From Candidatus Levyibacteriota bacterium (GTDB lineage Bacteria > Patescibacteriota > Microgenomatia > Levybacterales > UBA12049): a stretch of DNA of 64,000 nt. This document shows positions 907 to 42,118 of the stretch, one piece after another; positions within the stretch are counted from its first letter, which is position 1, and each line of letters starts with the position of its first letter. The translations under genes and the position numbers were made by a program. The notes beneath the pieces were generated by a model. The model saw nothing but the letters and a program-made list of their open reading frames with translations. It made no database searches and had not been told where the DNA came from. The stretch is taken from positions 2,820 through 66,819 of the forward strand of contig PJMG01000006.1 of the NCBI GenBank assembly GCA_003173895.1, given 5' to 3'.

Positions 907-3153
907 ATGAGCTTAGAGATGTTGATTCCTAGACAAAATATAGATGATCCCACTATAAGTGGCTTTTCGTCTCCCGAAAAACTTCCAGAGGGCGTTCAAC
1001 AAACTCTTAATATCCGTGCCCTAACCAGGCAAATAGCAAAAGAAAGAGAAATTAATCTAAGGGGAGGCATGTTACAACAAATTAATGAATTAGCACAAAA
1101 AGCACAAGAATATTTATCTAAAGATCAGTTAGGAAATAAATATTTCTGTGAAGGACTTGCTTCAGTTATAAAACAAACTCTTTATGTTCAAAGTAAAGTA
1201 GAAAACTCTCATTCCTTAAAAGAATTTTCAATAGCAGATAATTTAGAGAATTTAATTAATGCTTATACCATAGAATATAACCAAACATTACAAAATGCTC
1301 AAGCTACTAATATTTTTACTACTACACAATGCCTTATAGTGGCAGAATATGGAGCTTTATATCATGGACCAAAGTTTCTAGATGAATTATTAAAATCTGA
1401 AGGTGCTAAAGATCTTATTTATTCTGATGCTGTTTTCTTTTCTATTGCCCACTGGGTTTCTGATCCTACAACTGCTTTATTAAAATTAAATCAAAAAATG
1501 CATGAATTAAGAAATAGTTATCCTCAAGCTAGCTCTAGAGCTTTATTCGATGCTGCGCGACAACCAAATCGTGCAGAACAAATACTGAATAATTTAATTA
1601 TTGATGTATATGCAAAACAATTTAAATTGGATTTATATATAGTAAAAGATGCTTTTAAAGCTATGCCTACAGAGGCAGCTATAACGTTCTTAAAAGAATT
1701 TAATGAGAGTATTAAATCTTTAAAGACTCTTTATCCTGGTTATGATGAATATATATATAGAAAAATTTTGTCAAAATATAGAGAGAATGTTCAGAAAGTG
1801 TTACAAAACTTACCCACGCAGATCATAAAATTATTAGCTATTTCTAAATATAAGGGACTTTCTAAAGAACTCTTAATTGCTGCTATAGCATATAACTATA
1901 ATAATCCTCAACAATTTCTTGACAACTATCTAGAAAAACACCCTATACGTCAAGAAGAAATAAGTAAAATGCCTACTTTAATTAAATCTATTATCTTAAA
2001 AGAACTTCTTACAGTATCGGAAATAGAATCTTCAGAACTCATAGCTCAAATTTTAACGGAATTAAAAAGGCATAATATTTTTGACCCTGAACAATACAAT
2101 CATAAAATTAGTAACTATTTAAATAATCTTTATCAAAATGGTGTTATCGGTGTTAGACATATACGTCAAAATTTAAATATTTATTTTTTACCTAAAGAAA
2201 ATGAGCTAATTGCAAAAGAAGAATTAATTGAAACTTCAGAATTTCCTACAGAACTTATTACAGAGAATACAGAAAATTCAGAAGAAGTAGAAATGGTAAG
2301 TTCAGAAGAAGCTGAAGATATGTTTAAAAATGATCCTAGTCTGCAGGATGTTAGTGACTCTGAAACTATGTATATACGAGAAGCTACTAAATTGCCACTT
2401 TTAAATCATTCTCAAGAAATAGAATTAGCTAAAAGAATAGAAAAAGGAGATAAAGAAGCGAGAGAATTATTCATAAAAGCAAATATGCGCCTCGTTATCT
2501 CTATAGCTAAAAAATATAGAGGAAGACATTTATCGTTTCTAGATCTCATTCAAGAAGGTAATATAGGATTAATAGAAGCAGTTGAGACCTATGACTGGAG
2601 ACGAGGTTCTAGATTCTCTACGCACGCTACTTGGCTTATTAGACGAGATATTCTATCTGCTTTAAATGATAAATCGAGAATCATACGTATACCAACACAT
2701 ATGATTACTAAAATTAATCGTGTAAATAGAGAACGTAATAGATTAACTCAAGAATTGGGTCATGAACCATCAAATGAGGAATTATCTAAGGAATTAGGCA
2801 TAACATTAGATGCTTTAAACGAAATTGAAGAAGCACAGATTCAAATGTATTCTCTTGATGCTCCTTTAGATGACGAGCCAGATAATTCATTAGGTGATTT
2901 TGTAGAAGATGAAAGAGATGATTATGAAAATGTAGAGACAGATGATATTTCTATGACCATACAAGAAGCATTAGCTATTCTTACAGAGCGAGAGAAACAA
3001 GTTATTATATATAGATTTTATCATAGTAAAAGTTTAATAGAAACAGGAAGAGAATTAGGTGTTGGTCGAGAAAGAGTTAGACAAATAGAAACTACAGCTA
3101 TAAATAAACTTAGATCCCCTAAAGCAATACGTATTTTACAAGAAGCTCGCTAA
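907..3153 (+). CDS. RNA polymerase sigma-70 family sigma factor with a ~480-aa non-homologous N-terminal extension
   Basis: The C-terminal ~260 aa carry regions 1.2-4.2: [54 protein letters not shown] (region 2), region 3, and [36 protein letters not shown] (region 4 HTH). An acidic stretch precedes region 1.2. The N-terminal 480 aa match nothing I recognise. Confidence 0.8.
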
Positions 3154-3201: not shown

Positions 3202-5613
3202 ATGCTTTCATTTTTAAATCGCGCTATTAGATATCTTTTTTACGCACTTTTCTTTTTAATACCACTAACATTTTGGGGCTCTACATCAGAACTTTTTGAG
3301 TTTAATAAAATGTGGCTGACTTTTATCATCACTATTCTTATAGCAGCCTGCTGGATTTCTAAAATGATCATTACTAAGAAATTTATCTTTAAAAGAACTC
3401 CACTAGATATTCCTATCGGTCTTTTTCTACTTTCCCAAATCATCTCTACTATCTTTACTCTAGACCATCATGTTTCACTTTGGGGTTATTATGGCCGTTG
3501 GAACGGCGGATTGTTATCAATTATCTCTTATATCTTTTTATATTATGCCCTGGTTAGTAATATATTGAATGACAAGCAAGGGGTGGTGAACCTGGAAGGG
3601 ATCCCGATGGCGCGCAACGATTTAATTACGAAGCAATTACCTAGTGAGCACCAGCGGGAGGGAAAGGTTCGACAGGACCCCGCATTAGCAGGACCCGCGT
3701 TCTTAAATCAACCTTTTGTCTTTAACATCCTAAAAATTTCTCTTCTTTCAGGCTTTATCGTCTGCCTTTGGGGTCTTCCAGGACATTTCGGTTACGATCC
3801 TACTTGTTTATTGTTCCGTGGCCATTTGGATGTTTCCTGTTGGACCGCTGATTTTCAACCTAAAATTAGAATTTTCTCTACTCTTGGCCAACCCGATTGG
3901 CTCGCTGCCTATTTAGCTATTCTTATTCCAATCTCTTTATTTTTCGCACTTTCAAATGCTTATTCATTTTTCACCCGCGATAAAAGATTAAAAATAAATT
4001 ATCAACCTCTACTCTATTCTCTTGGCTATTCGCTCTTAACCATGTGTTACTTCATAGCATCTATCTATACTCAATCTAAAAGCGGCTTTATAGGCATTAT
4101 TTTAGAACTAGTCATTTTCTGGTTAATAATTTTAATTAAGCAAAATAAAGATAAACTGTTCTTTAAATTATTTGTAATTTGTTTCTTTACCATTGGTATT
4201 ATTGTTTTCTTAGTTGGTTCTCCATTCGCTCAAATTAATAAATTTACTTTTCCTAGCTTACAGAATATTTTTAGTTCTAAGTCAACATCTACCACTCATC
4301 CATCAACTGGTGGAACACAACCAATTGCTGCTCCCGCTGGCGAGCTCGGCGGAACAGACAGTGGAAAGATCAGACTTTTCGTTTGGGAAGGAGCCGTAAA
4401 AGCTTGGCTAGCTCATCCTATTTTCGGTACAGGAGTGGAAACATTCGCCTTCGCATACTATTTATATAGACCAGCCGGACATAATCTAACTTCTGAATGG
4501 GATTACCTTTATAATAAAGCTCATAATGAATATCTCAACTATCTCGCCACCACTGGAGCCTTCGGCCTTTTAACTTACTTATCAATCCTGAGTATCTTTA
4601 TTTTTTTAATCTTAAAACAAATCTTTAGAAACAAGTCCATTATTGTCATTCCCGCGAAGGCGGGAATCTATGCAGAGGGATCCCCGATCAGGTCGGGGAT
4701 GACAAAAGAAACTCTACTTATAGCATTACTATCTTCCTATACCGGTATTCTCATCACTAACTTTTTTGGTTTTTCAGTAGTTATAGTTAATATTTATCTA
4801 TTTCTAATCCCCGCTTTGTTTTTTCTATTTATTAAGCAAGCGGATTTTAATACAGATTCCCAACAACTAGGCAAACCTTTAGCTCTTTCTTCAGGACAAA
4901 TTTTCGCTATGATTATAACTTTCTTAATTGGTCTTTATCTTATTATTGTGTTGATAAATTATTGGACTGCGGATCAGGACTATGCTTATGGTCAGGGCTT
5001 AGATCATCTCAGCCTTTTTGATAAAGCTTATCCTTACCTAAAAAGTGCTGCTGATAAGAGACCTAGTGAACCTGTATTTAAAGACGAACTTTCTGTAGCT
5101 GAAGGCAGTTTAGCCTTAGCCGAAGCCCAAAATAATAATCTAAATCTAGCGAATACTTTTGCTGAGAATGCTATTAACACCAGTGATGAACTAATCACTA
5201 ACTATCCTAATGACATCATTTTTTGGAAAAGCAGAATTAGAATTTTCTACGCATTATCTGAAGTGGATAAAAAATATTTAGCTTATGCCTTACAAGCTGC
5301 CCAAGAAGCTAATAAATTAGCTCCTACAGATGCTAAAGTCTCATATAATTTAGGCGTATTATATGCCCAAAACGGCGATTTAGATAAAGCTATTTCTACT
5401 CTTAAACAGACTATCGCACTAAAAAAAGACTATTCTGATGCATATTTTGCTTTAGGTTTAGTTTATAGAACCAAAGCATTGGATAAGAATGGAAAATTGA
5501 TAGATAAGGAAGCAGAAGCCAATGCTGTTTATTATATGAAGTATATTTTAAACAACTTTGATCCAAATAATGCTGACGTTATAAAAAACCTCCAAAGTTG
5601 GGGCGAGCTGTAA
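3202..5613 (+). CDS. O-antigen ligase (Wzy_C)-like polytopic membrane protein with C-terminal TPR repeats; contains two in-frame GC-rich repeat insertions
   Basis: Multiple TM helices. Wzy_C-like core WEGAVKAWLAHPIFGTGVETF...HNEYLNYLATTGAFGLL. C-terminal TPR-like repeats (AYFALGLVYRTKALDKNGKL...). A gene with this architecture has been reported in Patescibacteria-type genomes. Confidence 0.7.
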   Translation: MLSFLNRAIRYLFYALFFLIPLTFWGSTSELFEFNKMWLTFIITILIAACWISKMIITKKFIFKRTPLDIPIGLFLLSQIISTIFTLDHHVSLWGYYGRWNGGLLSIISYIFLYYALVSNILNDKQGVVNLEGIPMARNDLITKQLPSEHQREGKVRQDPALAGPAFLNQPFVFNILKISLLSGFIVCLWGLPGHFGYDPTCLLFRGHLDVSCWTADFQPKIRIFSTLGQPDWLAAYLAILIPISLFFALSNAYSFFTRDKRLKINYQPLLYSLGYSLLTMCYFIASIYTQSKSGFIGIILELVIFWLIILIKQNKDKLFFKLFVICFFTIGIIVFLVGSPFAQINKFTFPSLQNIFSSKSTSTTHPSTGGTQPIAAPAGELGGTDSGKIRLFVWEGAVKAWLAHPIFGTGVETFAFAYYLYRPAGHNLTSEWDYLYNKAHNEYLNYLATTGAFGLLTYLSILSIFIFLILKQIFRNKSIIVIPAKAGIYAEGSPIRSGMTKETLLIALLSSYTGILITNFFGFSVVIVNIYLFLIPALFFLFIKQADFNTDSQQLGKPLALSSGQIFAMIITFLIGLYLIIVLINYWTADQDYAYGQGLDHLSLFDKAYPYLKSAADKRPSEPVFKDELSVAEGSLALAEAQNNNLNLANTFAENAINTSDELITNYPNDIIFWKSRIRIFYALSEVDKKYLAYALQAAQEANKLAPTDAKVSYNLGVLYAQNGDLDKAISTLKQTIALKKDYSDAYFALGLVYRTKALDKNGKLIDKEAEANAVYYMKYILNNFDPNNADVIKNLQSWGEL
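3578..3702. repeat. GC-rich element family 2 (AAGGGGTGG...CGACAGGACCCCG), full-length copy inserted in-frame in the CDS 3202-5613
   Basis: A ~125-bp island of about 55% GC inside an AT-rich gene. It encodes a hydrophilic loop (QGVVNLEGIPMARNDLITKQLPSEHQREGKVRQDPALAGPAFL) between two hydrophobic segments. Related copies sit at 24008-24057 and 26405-26426. Confidence 0.6.
4644..4704. repeat. MITE-like palindromic element family 1 (TGTCATyC...CGAAGG...GATGACA), in-frame inside the CDS 3202-5613
   Basis: tgtcattcccgcgaaggcgggaatc...gatccccgatcaggtcggggatgaca: two GC hairpins bounded by a TGTCAT/ATGACA terminal inverted repeat. It is translated as IPAKAGIYAEGSPIRSGMTKE without breaking the frame. 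Confidence 0.6.
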
Positions 5614-5662: not shown

Positions 5663-5695
5663 TAAGCAGAAGAATAAATTTGGGCTAATCTTACC

Positions 5696-5812
5696 TTGAC
5701 AAAAGATGATCTATTGTACATAATGTACTTACAAAGGCTCTGTTTTCGAATTGTCACCGTATGGTGCGCGTTCCAGGCTTACGTTTGGATAGAAAGCAGA
5801 GTCGTTTTTTAT
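5696..5812 (+). ncRNA. candidate small RNA or bidirectional terminator structure driven by a consensus promoter
   Basis: TTGACA (5696-5701), 17 bp, CATAAT (5719-5724). Then a long-range stem GGCTCTG (5736-5742) / CAGAGTC (5797-5803) encloses an inner hairpin CACCGTATGGTG and is followed by GTTTTTT. No + strand CDS lies downstream. The structure overlaps the stop of the DUF3800 gene and could simply be its terminator. Confidence 0.3.
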
Positions 5813-6426
5813 TTAAATTCCCAAATGTCTTCTATATGTTTCTTACCTAACATATCAAGATAACTTTTATCTTTCTTTGTATAATTAGCATAAATACTTC
5901 CAGCAACCATATCCGCAAGCTGAATAAGTGTATTTTCCTTAGAGTCAACAAATTTGAGATCTATAAATATTTTTTTGCTTCTGTTATTTAATTCACGGCT
6001 TAAGTACACTCGAAGTTGATCTCTTAATGATTTTTCTCCTCGTTTATCAAAACGTAACTTGGCACCTTTAATATGCTCACTGTTTAGTAATACCTGCATG
6101 ATTACGTAATTATAAAAATTTTCTTTATCATTTCTGAGTCTAGGACTGTAAATTATTTTCTTATCAACCACAATAGCTCTTACTTTAAAATCAAATGGTT
6201 GAACTGTAGTCATGAATGCAGTCTTAAATCTTTTGTCTGTCTTATTAAATTTGAATTCGTATAAGTCTGATACCTTAAGTCTTCTCCGTAGTTCCTTTAT
6301 TGCTAATGAAGTTTTTTCTGCTTCTAAATTATCAATAAAAATTACCATTGAAATAATAAATACAGTACTTGAACCTTTTTGAAGCCGGAAACCTGGATCT
6401 CCAGAATCATCTATAAAAATAAGCAT
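5809..6426 (-). CDS. DUF3800 family protein
   Basis: N-terminal MLIFIDDSGDPGF (the DUF3800 IYIDESG-type motif) and C-terminal LIQLADMVAGSI (QxADxxAG motif). Confidence 0.55.
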   Translation of the reverse strand: MLIFIDDSGDPGFRLQKGSSTVFIISMVIFIDNLEAEKTSLAIKELRRRLKVSDLYEFKFNKTDKRFKTAFMTTVQPFDFKVRAIVVDKKIIYSPRLRNDKENFYNYVIMQVLLNSEHIKGAKLRFDKRGEKSLRDQLRVYLSRELNNRSKKIFIDLKFVDSKENTLIQLADMVAGSIYANYTKKDKSYLDMLGKKHIEDIWEFK

Positions 6427-12303: not shown

Positions 12304-12414
12304 TGTCATCCTGAGTGACCCGCTTCGCCGAAGCGATAGCGAGGCGAGAACGAAAAATCTTTATCTTGGAAAGACTTAAGTATATAGATCCTTCGCTGAG
12401 GCTCAGGATGACAT
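12304..12414. repeat. MITE-like element family 1, full ~111-bp copy with TGTCATCCTGAG / CTCAGGATGACA terminal inverted repeats
   Basis: tgtcatcctgagtgacccgcttcgccgaagcgatagcgaggcgaga...gatccttcgctgaggctcaggatgaca. GC-rich, intergenic between convergent genes. Confidence 0.7.
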
Positions 12415-13175: not shown

Positions 13176-13202
13176 GATCCTTTCGCTGAAGCTCAGGATG
13201 AC
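13176..13202. repeat. family-1 repeat unit (GATCCTTTCGCTGAAGCTCAGGATGAC)
   Basis: A near copy of the right arm of the 12304 element. Confidence 0.55.
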
Positions 13203-21951: not shown

Positions 21952-22009
21952 GAGATTCTTCTCTCTCGCCTCGATTCGATTCGGCGAAGCGGGTCGTTCA
22001 GAATGACAA
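21952..22009. repeat. MITE-like family 1 copy, left half, in inverted orientation
   Basis: The reverse complement reads tgtcattctgaacgacccgcttcgccgaatcgaatcgaggcgagagagaagaatctc, about 85% identical to the left half of the 12304 copy. Confidence 0.65.
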
Positions 22010-23398: not shown

Positions 23399-23953
23399 TT
23401 ATTTGTAAGGACCTTTTATGATATTTAACTCTCCTCGCCCTATTTCATCAGTATCCATTCCATAACCTTGAACCCAGACATCAGGAATACTAAAACCAAT
23501 ATAATCAGGTATAAATCTAACTTTTCGTCTTTCTGGTTTATCTAAAAGTACAAAAGTTTCAACAGACTTAGGATCTTTTTTAAGAAAAATGTTTTTTACA
23601 AATTCTAAACTTTTTCCAGTATCACAAATATCATCGATTAAAAGTAGATTTCTGTTTTTAATATTAATATCTATATCTAAAATCATTTCTGGCTCTTGAA
23701 TGGCAGTAGTACCGTGCATGTAACTTTTCACTCTTATAAAAGAAAGTTCTATATCTGTTAATCCCATCTTATGAAGTTTAATCAATAGATTAGTAGTTAC
23801 TATAGCAGCACCCTTTAAAATTCCAACGATAATTAATTTTTTATCTTTATATTTTTTAACTAAATCTTTAGCCAATTCATTAATTCTATCTTCAATTTCC
23901 TTCTCAGAAATTATAATTTCACTTATTTTATACTCATCAGGAGTTTTAAACAT
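23399..23953 (-). CDS. hpt: hypoxanthine phosphoribosyltransferase
   Basis: PRPP-binding motif LLLIDDICDTGKSL; size and hood region are typical of HPRT. Confidence 0.8.
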   Translation of the reverse strand: MFKTPDEYKISEIIISEKEIEDRINELAKDLVKKYKDKKLIIVGILKGAAIVTTNLLIKLHKMGLTDIELSFIRVKSYMHGTTAIQEPEMILDIDINIKNRNLLLIDDICDTGKSLEFVKNIFLKKDPKSVETFVLLDKPERRKVRFIPDYIGFSIPDVWVQGYGMDTDEIGRGELNIIKGPYK

Positions 23954-24007
23954 AGCTAGATTATACCAAACTAGCTAAAGAAGTATGAATCAAAATTCTG
24001 TTAAGAG

Positions 24008-24057
24008 AAGGGGTGGCGCGAGTGGAAGGGAACCCGCGACAGGACTCCAGCAGAAGT
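24008..24057. repeat. GC-rich element family 2, short copy (internal-deletion derivative)
   Basis: aaggggtggcgcgagtggaagggaacccgcgacaggactccagcagaag aligns with the two ends of the 3578-3702 copy; intergenic. Confidence 0.5.
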
Positions 24058-24102
24058 TAAGAAAATTACATTACAAAATAATCCAGGATCACAAAATGAA
24101 GT

Positions 24103-24372
24103 TTATGAAAGATCTTTGTCTAGCTCTTCTATATCATCTTCTAAATCCGGTTCTATTTCTTTAGCTTTCTCTTTCATCTTAGTTTTTAAATCAGTTATAT
24201 AACTTTTAGCTTGAGTTTTAGCAGTTTTTAAAGCAGACTTAAGTTTTTGCTGGTTCTTTTTATCCTTTAAAGCTAAAGTCGTAGCTACTGCTATTCCTGC
24301 CCCCACTACAGCTCCTGTCAAACCTACTCCTATTACCCTTCCTTTGTTATTTTTTTCATTTTTATCTATCAT
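24103..24372 (-). CDS. small membrane-anchored hypothetical protein
   Basis: TM segment GVGLTGAVVGAGIAVATTLAL followed by a charged coiled tail. Confidence 0.3.
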   Translation of the reverse strand: MIDKNEKNNKGRVIGVGLTGAVVGAGIAVATTLALKDKKNQQKLKSALKTAKTQAKSYITDLKTKMKEKAKEIEPDLEDDIEELDKDLS

Positions 24373-40682: not shown

Positions 40683-40727
40683 GTCATCCTGAGTTTCAAC
40701 GAAGGATCTATATTTTCAGAATGACAA
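40683..40727. repeat. family-1 repeat (GTCATCCTGAGTTTCAACGAAGGATC ... CAGAATGACAA)
   Basis: Sits exactly between the ArsR stop and the AHSA1 start. Confidence 0.55.
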
Positions 40728-42028: not shown

Positions 42029-42050
42029 AATATTAAGAACGAGATCCTTC

Positions 42051-42118
42051 GACTCCTTAGGTTTCACTCAGGATAAGTTCGCTCGGGATGACAATTTTGA
42101 ACAAGACAGAATGACAAT
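42051..42118. repeat. family-1 repeat cluster (three units)
   Basis: gatccttcgactccttaggtttcactcaggataag; ttcgctcgggatgacaa; cagaatgacaa. Confidence 0.55.

Follow-up and report, generated by a model that had tools for sequence, protein, structure and literature searches.

Two GC-rich repeat segments in inter-helix loops of a Wzy_C membrane-protein gene of Candidatus Levyibacteriota, one of them belonging to a dispersed structured family

Contig PJMG01000006.1 of assembly GCA_003173895.1, a metagenome-assembled genome (MAG) of a Candidatus Levyibacteriota bacterium, supplied the 64,000 nt analysed here (the window). Within it, the gene for an O-antigen-ligase-like membrane protein carries two short GC-rich segments, which the initial annotation had taken for foreign-looking repeats that stay in frame and are translated as extra loops. 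We refer to the elements in these segments as E1 and E2. The features at the locus are as follows.

3202-5613, + strand: host gene, encoding a polytopic Wzy_C (O-antigen-ligase-like) membrane protein of 803 aa with a C-terminal TPR domain; intact.
3580-3681, + strand: E1, a full copy of a structured repeat family, in sense orientation to the host gene, 56.9% GC.
3687-3699, + strand: extra fragment, AGCAGGACCCGCG, beginning 5 nt past the full E1 and read from the sequence.
4644-4704, + strand: E2, 61 bp, two hairpin units arranged as an inverted doublet and bounded by a TGTCAT/ATGACA terminal inverted repeat.

Calling of open reading frames (ORFs) on the window gives a single uninterrupted frame of 803 aa at 3202-5613 (+). 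Its product matches Pfam Wzy_C (PF04932) at E=2.7e-18 and 66.6 bits, above the gathering cutoff of 31.7, and several TPR models match its C-terminus; by this family criterion it is a Wzy_C/O-antigen-ligase-like membrane protein and a predicted enzyme. Hydropathy and structure prediction with AlphaFold2 point to ~12-13 hydrophobic helices and a 114-residue loop at 339-452. Homologues number more than 5000, the best of them full-length and 45-59% identical and the named top ones assigned to Levybacteria, Microgenomates and 'Patescibacteria group', which places the organism in the candidate phyla radiation (CPR), and the host protein preserves every invariant column of a 25-sequence alignment.

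The two segments stand out in base composition, with 56.8% GC at 3578-3702 and 59.0% at 4644-4704 as compared to 34.0% in the remaining host gene and 31.7% in the window. Windowed GC and an island scan gave three peaks in the gene (3571-3711, 4306-4379 and 4645-4713); that at 4306-4379 was rejected as a third insert, since it encodes the conserved, family-wide GELGGTDSGKIR motif. Alignment of the protein with 24 orthologues shows surplus sequence in length-variable loops at residues ~125-170 and ~480-503, and the spacing between the VSN and LWG motifs is 68 residues in the window protein versus 21-24 in most orthologues. In an AlphaFold2 model built on the alignment (mean predicted local distance difference test score, pLDDT, 75; predicted template modelling score, pTM, 0.77), residues 126-169 are coil of pLDDT <50 flanked by helices 104-126 and 170-189, and residues 478-499 are likewise coil of pLDDT <50, between helices 443-476 and 498-521. 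Kyte-Doolittle hydropathy also places both segments between hydrophobic helices, in keeping with the extra loops first proposed. Both loops would face the cytoplasm, because the short loops are K/R-rich and the 339-452 Wzy_C loop and the Cys-containing 191-232 loop are assumed to face outward.

E1, which would be translated as roughly residues 127-160 of the host protein, is laid out as GGGGTGG, a P2 arm, GGAAGGGATCCCGATGGCGCGCA, an apical hairpin, GAGCACCAGCGGGAGGGAAA, the second P2 arm and ACAGGACCCC, and the covariance model described below matches it at 3569-3693 (88.5 bits, E=2.8e-19). The initial annotation had correctly placed a GC-rich segment here but had described it as one element of ~125 bp; it is a 102-bp element plus the extra 3'-end-like fragment. 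This fragment, AGCAGGACCCGCG, resembles a second E1 3' end of the variant GGCAGGACC seen in L002 and L006 (L numbers denote loci fetched for comparison) and is possibly the remnant of an earlier or second insertion. The family was also said to occur between genes in the window, and one such copy is present.

23999-24060, + strand: second E1-family copy, internally deleted, with P1, P2 and the GGAAGGG loop only; intergenic.

The covariance model matches this copy at 33.1 bits (E=6.8e-6), and it lies between two real genes, one for a phosphoribosyltransferase (23399-23953, -) and a small one (24103-24372, -). No E1-family copy other than those at 3569-3693 and 23999-24060 was found in the window with the model. 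A cmscan of 3400-4900 against Rfam 15 gave no match to E1 at E up to 10. Cobalamin and SAM riboswitches, hammerhead and twister ribozymes, signal recognition particle (SRP) RNA and RNase P were considered on the basis of their consensus sequences and rejected on the misfit of motifs and their order as well as the negative cmscan. E1 is not simply palindromic: the element is structured, and its asymmetric internal loops are conserved.

The orthologous site was cut from the fetched DNA of seven orthologues. The window, L001, L003, L004 and L005 share one layout, namely GGGTGG, a 6-7-nt arm, GGAAGGGYTCCCGACAGCGCGCA, a variable hairpin, GAGCACTGGCGGGAGGGAAA, the complementary arm and GACAGGACCC, and L002 and L006 carry degenerate variants. 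The DNA is kept at this site, yet its reading frame differs among orthologues. In the window the 5' half gives VNLEGIP and the 3' half gives REGKVRQDP, whereas L003, L004 and L005 read GRAPDSAQ-type and AGGKxxTGP-type peptides (GVVNLEGIP versus GRAPDSAQ in the one half, SEHQREGKVRQDP versus ALAGGKLLTGP in the other). The conserved unit is therefore the nucleotide element and not the peptide.

E1 is one of many copies. Scanning of its exact 3'-core pattern over one genome per GTDB species returned 75 loci, of which ~70 show the full architecture, from Levy-, Curtiss- and Roizmanbacteria and other Patescibacteria MAGs. Several copies are present per MAG (e.g., JBEKQZ01, JACPKK01, CAYMIE01, and CAZRWL01), with up to 5-6 within the fetched pieces. 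The covariance model, built from 28 aligned short-class copies (alignment A2), has 74 matches across the 75 fetched loci and none in the chance-match loci L027 (a Treponematales MAG), L032, L040 (a Clostridia MAG) and L073 (Novosphingobium), and it adds copies, one of them within the peptide deformylase gene of L004. Had the same segment been found in genomes free of the repeat, the insertion reading would have suffered; the genomes of E1-carrying orthologues in fact also hold several family copies.

The family measures ~90-170 nt and forms a rod-like hairpin in which the internal loops and P3 are almost invariant, while P2, the outer stem and the apical hairpin vary yet pair. RNAalifold on A2 independently predicts P1, P2 and P3/P3b, matching the helices drawn by hand. 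Standard pairs occupy 86.6% of the pairing cells in A2, as compared to 75.7% in shuffled and 38-46% in slid controls, and the covariation score is 0.327, a value reached by 0 of 500 shuffled alignments (0.137), as compared to 0.06-0.09 in slid controls. P2 is 95% paired with double changes at all six of its pairs, and the P3 stem is nearly invariant. P1 (GGGGT/ACCCC) forms the terminal inverted repeat; in one subclass the outer stems are longer and variable. Two conserved purine-rich loops, GGAAGGG and GGGAAA, lie opposite one another, so the two arms of E1 are not copies of each other. P2, P3 and P3b together contain 20 G:T pairs versus 3 A:C mismatches (p=5e-4), which argues that one specific strand folds as a single strand, either RNA or single-stranded DNA (ssDNA). 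Single-sequence folding of the window copy (z=-0.53 on the + strand, z=-3.29 on the - strand) carries no information on the strand, so this assignment rests on the G:T and A:C counts.

Some E1 copies have further GC-rich hairpins nested in them, GGGCCGCCGAAGGCGAGCCTCGC in the 3' half or CCCCGCTTCGC...GCGGGG after TCCCGAC; such elements within elements were seen in L041, L044, L045, L072 and L038 (Curtissbacteria) and in L033, L037, L062, L011 and L060. Separately, many third-party annotation (TPA) MAGs with E1 and Microgenomates-type genes are titled 'uncultured Gammaproteobacteria' (L010, L011, L013, L015, and others), and among the E1-carrying records one bears the title Nanoarchaeia and another Chlamydiae; mislabelling or misbinning is the probable cause.

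Most delimited copies lie inside genes. Counting a copy as in-ORF when a stop-to-stop frame extends at least 50 aa on both sides, 37 of 58 are within ORFs, 11 in sense and 26 in antisense orientation. Hosts confirmed with Pfam are leucyl-tRNA synthetase (LeuRS), topoisomerase I (TopA), carbamoyl-phosphate synthase (CPSase) large chain, transketolase, a P-type ATPase and a DUF2298 membrane protein (n = 6). By eye, the hosts in L065, L075 and L045 resemble the confirmed LeuRS of L015, and L015 and L065 carry E1 at the identical LeuRS point (FLKRxW...MHKTIKKV). Nearly all antisense copies use one frame (GPVxxFPPASA...RAVG[SN]PSxxAT[PR]), and sense copies mostly read GGxxGRAPDSAQ...ALAGGKxxTGP. 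Among in-ORF copies, 26 of 33 have a spacing of 1 mod 3 between the core halves, and among the others 8 of 18 do (binomial test against one third, 1e-7; Fisher test, 0.028). This phase filter is our best indirect evidence that the inserts are translated, with only some peptides being tolerated.

As an observation apart, the LeuRS ORF of L015 (CAZRWL010000007.1) that spans 2912-3025 has one E1 copy and also three in-frame inserts of E2-like architecture (VILNSFQDPGSLGNEMPKRAKYPKGIRHD, VILNSFQNLGSLGYEIPKQVRDD, and VILNSFQDLGSSKNEMLKPVQHD).

E2 reads TGTCAT-TCCCGCGAAGGCGGGA-ATC...GAT-CCCCGATCAGGTCGGGG-ATGACA, a GTCAT-hairpin-ATC unit with its mirror GAT-hairpin-ATGAC, and would be translated as IVIPAKAGIYAEGSPIRSGMT (residues 481-501). 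In agreement with the first description of its termini and two hairpins, its terminal inverted repeat closes a fold of two hairpins (-30.9 kcal/mol, z=-4.55, 0 of 200 shuffles), and folding is strong on either strand (z about -4.5). It is absent in the closest orthologues, P0002 and P0003 (P numbers denote orthologous proteins), whose loop is 17-20 residues shorter. Exact matches to the first unit, GTCATTCCCGCGAAGGCGGGAATC (24 nt), number more than 120 among metagenome contigs with 30-70% GC; many are in inverted doublets and most lie outside long ORFs. With up to 4 substitutions allowed, neither unit turned up a second time in the window or across 714 kb of related loci, and a repeat search of the window gave no further copy either. 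A strict GTCAT-hairpin scan of the window returned the two units of E2 and one AT-rich chance match, no more than simulated sequence does. A literature search of partial coverage with the unit sequence yielded nothing relevant.

The claim that the family of E2 recurs elsewhere in the window thus survives only in part: there is no second copy of the unit at this level of similarity, but elements with the same termini and architecture are present, the largest being the following.

12304-12413, no strand assigned: intergenic hairpin element of 110 bp with a TGTCATCCTGAG...CTCAGGATGACA terminal inverted repeat, fold z=-4.40.

Pieces similar to it lie at ~13176-13202, 21957-22009, 40683-40727 and 42041-42117, all intergenic. 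These five elements, of the type GTCATCCTGAG...CGAAGGATC, share with E2 only the GTCAT.../...ATGAC termini and the hairpin architecture, and blastn found no significant similarity between E2 and 12304-12413 beyond 9-11 nt at the termini; as a family of the window, this is a loose architectural class. Whereas the similarity of E1 copies is very strong under proper alignment, that of E2 holds only against sequences outside the window, namely the metagenome contigs and, below threshold, Rfam FtrB (Francisella sRNA B, a small RNA; RF02748). The FtrB alignment runs through both hairpins (GUCAUUCCCGCG.AGGCGGGAAUC and GAUCCCCG...CGGGGAU) and scores 36.4 bits, far under the gathering score of 66, and the flanking helices of FtrB are absent from E2; the shared part is probably a ubiquitous repeat unit and not a homologous sRNA gene.

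Other inserts occupy the E2 loop in related proteins. Elements of E2 architecture fill it in P0007, P0018, P0060 and P0071 (e.g., VILNLFQDL...MLKLVQHD). A third, AT-rich kind of insert was observed there in P0005, P0090, P0047, P0102, P0056, P0041 and P0096; it encodes SKSEFLISNQ[IA]PNSK[SP]QLGQLEIRSIRN and is conserved across several orthologues.

The distribution of E1 among Wzy_C orthologues bears on how it came to be there. In a rough neighbour-joining (NJ) tree of 120 orthologues, drawn with the insert masked and without support values, occupied orthologues are scattered, often beside empty ones. Comparison of L001 with its close relatives L203 and L204 shows a clean 90-bp (30-codon) insertion, a presence/absence difference between close relatives. 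The proteins of the sister genomes L002 and L003 are 84% identical, with almost identical flanks and long invariant runs on either side of the insert, and their elements are different variants, alignable (by eye) at roughly half of positions. L007, the window's closest relative (59% protein identity), has an AT-rich, decayed relic of E1 whose similarity to the core is matched by 1 of 2000 shuffles. Among occupied orthologues the E1 core is 93% identical, as compared to 44% at synonymous third positions of the adjacent, most conserved coding stretch. Because of the patchy tree, the clean indel, the variants in L002 and L003, the relic in L007, the conservation of the core and the extra 3' fragment in the window, we favour a history of turnover at a tolerant loop, in which elements were re-inserted, replaced or converted and also cleanly lost, rather than a single ancient insertion that stayed inert.

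A single ancient insertion, inherited vertically and precisely lost many times, would still be compatible with the position of E1, which varies by no more than about 3 codons among all occupied orthologues, with the proneness of palindromes to clean deletion, and with the L007 relic, which shows that old copies persist and decay. An old neutral copy, however, should have diverged as synonymous sites have and not have kept a core of such identity, the difference between L002 and L003 is far greater within the element than outside it, in the flanks, the variable parts (P2 and the apical hairpin) share nothing among orthologues, and a further 3'-end fragment follows E1 in the window. Since other copies could produce the appearance of re-insertion through gene conversion, this explanation is only partly excluded; we consider it rather unlikely.

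Taken with the results for E2, we think it probable that two small non-coding repeats have been inserted in inter-helix loops of the Wzy_C gene, and that E1 comes from a dispersed, probably mobile family of Microgenomates-type CPR bacteria. Both inserts would have landed in short loops between transmembrane helices, and the host gene would still work because both are free of stops, keep the frame and encode flexible loop peptides. On the history that we regard as likeliest, E1 would spread as a single strand of ssDNA or RNA whose folded form is recognised by an enzyme provided in trans, insert anywhere in gene-dense genomes, persist where the encoded peptide is harmless, and be lost again through clean deletion, so that tolerant loops would be occupied repeatedly. 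E2, an inverted doublet of a very widespread hairpin unit and REPIN-like in architecture, would likewise have landed in a tolerant loop.

Several points weigh against insertion of mobile repeats. The window holds only two copies of E1 and one of E2. No parent insertion sequence (IS) or cognate transposase for E1 was found in the window or the fetched loci, and no target-site duplication was recognised, there being no obvious direct repeat at the 90-bp filled/empty indel, with no systematic test made; the flanks of many E1 copies are inverted and not direct. Retrieval by an exact 3'-core pattern inflates the apparent conservation of that core and misses diverged copies. Residence within genes is defined by the stop-to-stop frame, with Pfam confirmation covering only six hosts, and translation of the E1 and E2 inserts is deduced from ORF continuity and phase statistics. 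Lastly, the high conservation of the core at orthologous sites could reflect selection on each copy.

This last point leads to the alternative that E1 is not a selfish mobile element but a functional cis-acting module of structured RNA or ssDNA, kept by selection at each locus. Within an mRNA or antisense transcript it might act as a signal for regulation, protein binding or processing. The near-invariant asymmetric internal loops, covarying helices and strand-specific wobble asymmetry would all suit such a module, as would a core 93% identical at orthologous sites next to synonymous neighbours saturated at 44%, and with no match in Rfam it could be an undescribed RNA. A cis-acting signal is hard to reconcile, however, with copies that lie in both orientations (26 antisense and 11 sense) and are spread over numerous unrelated genes as well as intergenic DNA, with hosts that have no common neighbourhood or function, with a patchy presence and clean indels among close orthologues, with a decayed relic and a degenerate copy, and with different variants at one site in sister genomes. 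We judge it clearly improbable.

That the segments are ordinary lineage-specific loops or insertion domains, incidentally GC-rich and hairpin-forming, agrees with the variable length of both sites in all homologues but is very hard to maintain when E1 DNA is read in different frames among orthologues and in both orientations in other genes, when the covariance model gives E=2.8e-19 for E1, and when a 24-nt unit of E2 recurs in over 120 unrelated metagenome contigs. Assembly or binning artefacts, i.e., chimeric joins of repeat-containing reads, deserve mention in view of the metagenomic origin of the genome and the error-prone assembly of repeats, but independent ENA, NCBI, JGI and Logan assemblies agree on the element and on its site, with the frame kept and collinear flanks, which reduces their probability to almost nil.

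Insertion of mobile repeats has precedents with which E1 and E2 can be compared. Rickettsia palindromic elements (RPEs; Ogata et al. 2000) are in-frame inserts within genes, as summarised in PMC10969869. Like them, E1 is a short (about 100-150 bp), dispersed, hairpin-forming repeat that also occurs between genes, adds tolerated peptide segments in frame to unrelated housekeeping genes, and resides in a small, AT-rich, reduced genome. Several copies per genome, as in RPEs, are found for E1 in related MAGs, with E2 single in the window, and in-frame insertion in unrelated genes is found for E1 (37 of 58, in diverse hosts), the window gene carrying both E1 and E2. In contrast to RPEs, the host phylum is Patescibacteria/Microgenomates, and the resemblance drawn here is one of behaviour. 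E1 further differs in its near-invariant asymmetric core, freely covarying helices and strand-specific wobble pairs, in its presence in both orientations with a fixed preferred frame in each, and in the different variants held by one gene's loop in sister genomes. The analogy to RPEs drawn in the initial annotation is thus supported as a way of working, that is, in-frame insertion into unrelated genes, and family membership is not claimed.

E2 resembles repetitive extragenic palindromic sequences (REPs) and their doublets (REPINs; bacterial interspersed mosaic elements, BIMEs): its short hairpin units carry a conserved 5' motif, GTCAT, and form an inverted doublet, such doublets of the unit recur across many metagenome contigs, and a folded single strand is presumed to be the substrate. 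REPs are extragenic by definition, whereas E2 sits within coding sequence; E1 differs from REPs in that its arms are not copies of one REP. A tblastn search found no REP-associated tyrosine (RAYT, Y1) transposase in the window. Y1 transposase genes are present in 3 of about 75 loci (L004 9704-10384 (-), L060 ~4695-5345, and L079 ~5676-6263), and these IS200/RAYT-like genes are each bracketed by short hairpins of their own (CAGGGTGACA/TGTCACCCTG, TCAGGGTTCAACCCTGA, and CACACCGCGTCGGTGTG). A RAYT/IS200-type transposase was set aside as the mobiliser of E1, these flanking hairpins being unrelated to E1 and the window having no such gene; it serves as a lead only. The Y1 gene of L004 is located directly downstream of the Wzy_C orthologue.

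Intragenic MITEs (miniature inverted-repeat transposable elements) of bacteria include ERIC, Correia, BOX, Anabaena MITEs and QMITE1 (PMC10969869). E1 and E2 resemble them as small non-autonomous repeats, which in MITEs sometimes form in-frame fusions with host ORFs, and in having terminal inverted repeats (TGTCAT/ATGACA in E2, GGGGT/ACCCC in E1). Classical hallmarks of MITEs are a target-site duplication and a parent IS. Neither was recognised for E1 in the window and the fetched loci, and roughly two thirds of its copies are intragenic (37 of 58), in which it departs from MITEs. Full-text searches, partial in their coverage, found no description of such repeats in CPR/Microgenomates or as MITEs.

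More speculatively, E1 may represent an undescribed class of structured, strand-specific mobile element adapted to life within CPR coding sequence. It would go beyond an ordinary decaying MITE because its core is near-invariant across several candidate-phylum-level lineages while its helices vary but pair, and because it has a fixed phase per orientation and the same loops are reoccupied by different variants. Either a dedicated single-strand (ssDNA or RNA) transposition or homing system or a host-beneficial role would fit. We regard this possibility as tentative and, on balance, doubtful.

Two neighbours of the host gene were also observed. Upstream, a 748-aa ORF at 907-3153 (+) has C-terminal ~300 residues that, from the translation and by eye, resemble a sigma-70-type factor, preceded by an extension of ~450 aa with no obvious match by eye. 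Downstream, the only gathering-level Rfam match in the window, DUF3800-IX RNA (RF02968) at 5737-5806 (+) (61.1 bits versus a gathering score of 36.8), directly adjoins a 205-aa ORF on the opposite strand (5809-6426, -); the name of the RNA motif suggests that this ORF is a DUF3800 gene.

In-frame 'selfish DNA' within genes has been regarded largely as a curiosity of Rickettsia. E1 would extend RPE-like behaviour to CPR/Patescibacteria, with a well-defined structured family inside essential genes (LeuRS, topoisomerase I, CPSase, and peptide deformylase). It bears on gene calling, protein-family alignments and structure prediction in CPR, where it would account for otherwise unexplained GC-rich 'insertions', and its conserved core and covariance model are a tractable handle for finding the mobilising enzyme. 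The family may also make it possible to examine how mobile DNA is tolerated, and new loop peptides are created, in reduced and gene-dense genomes.

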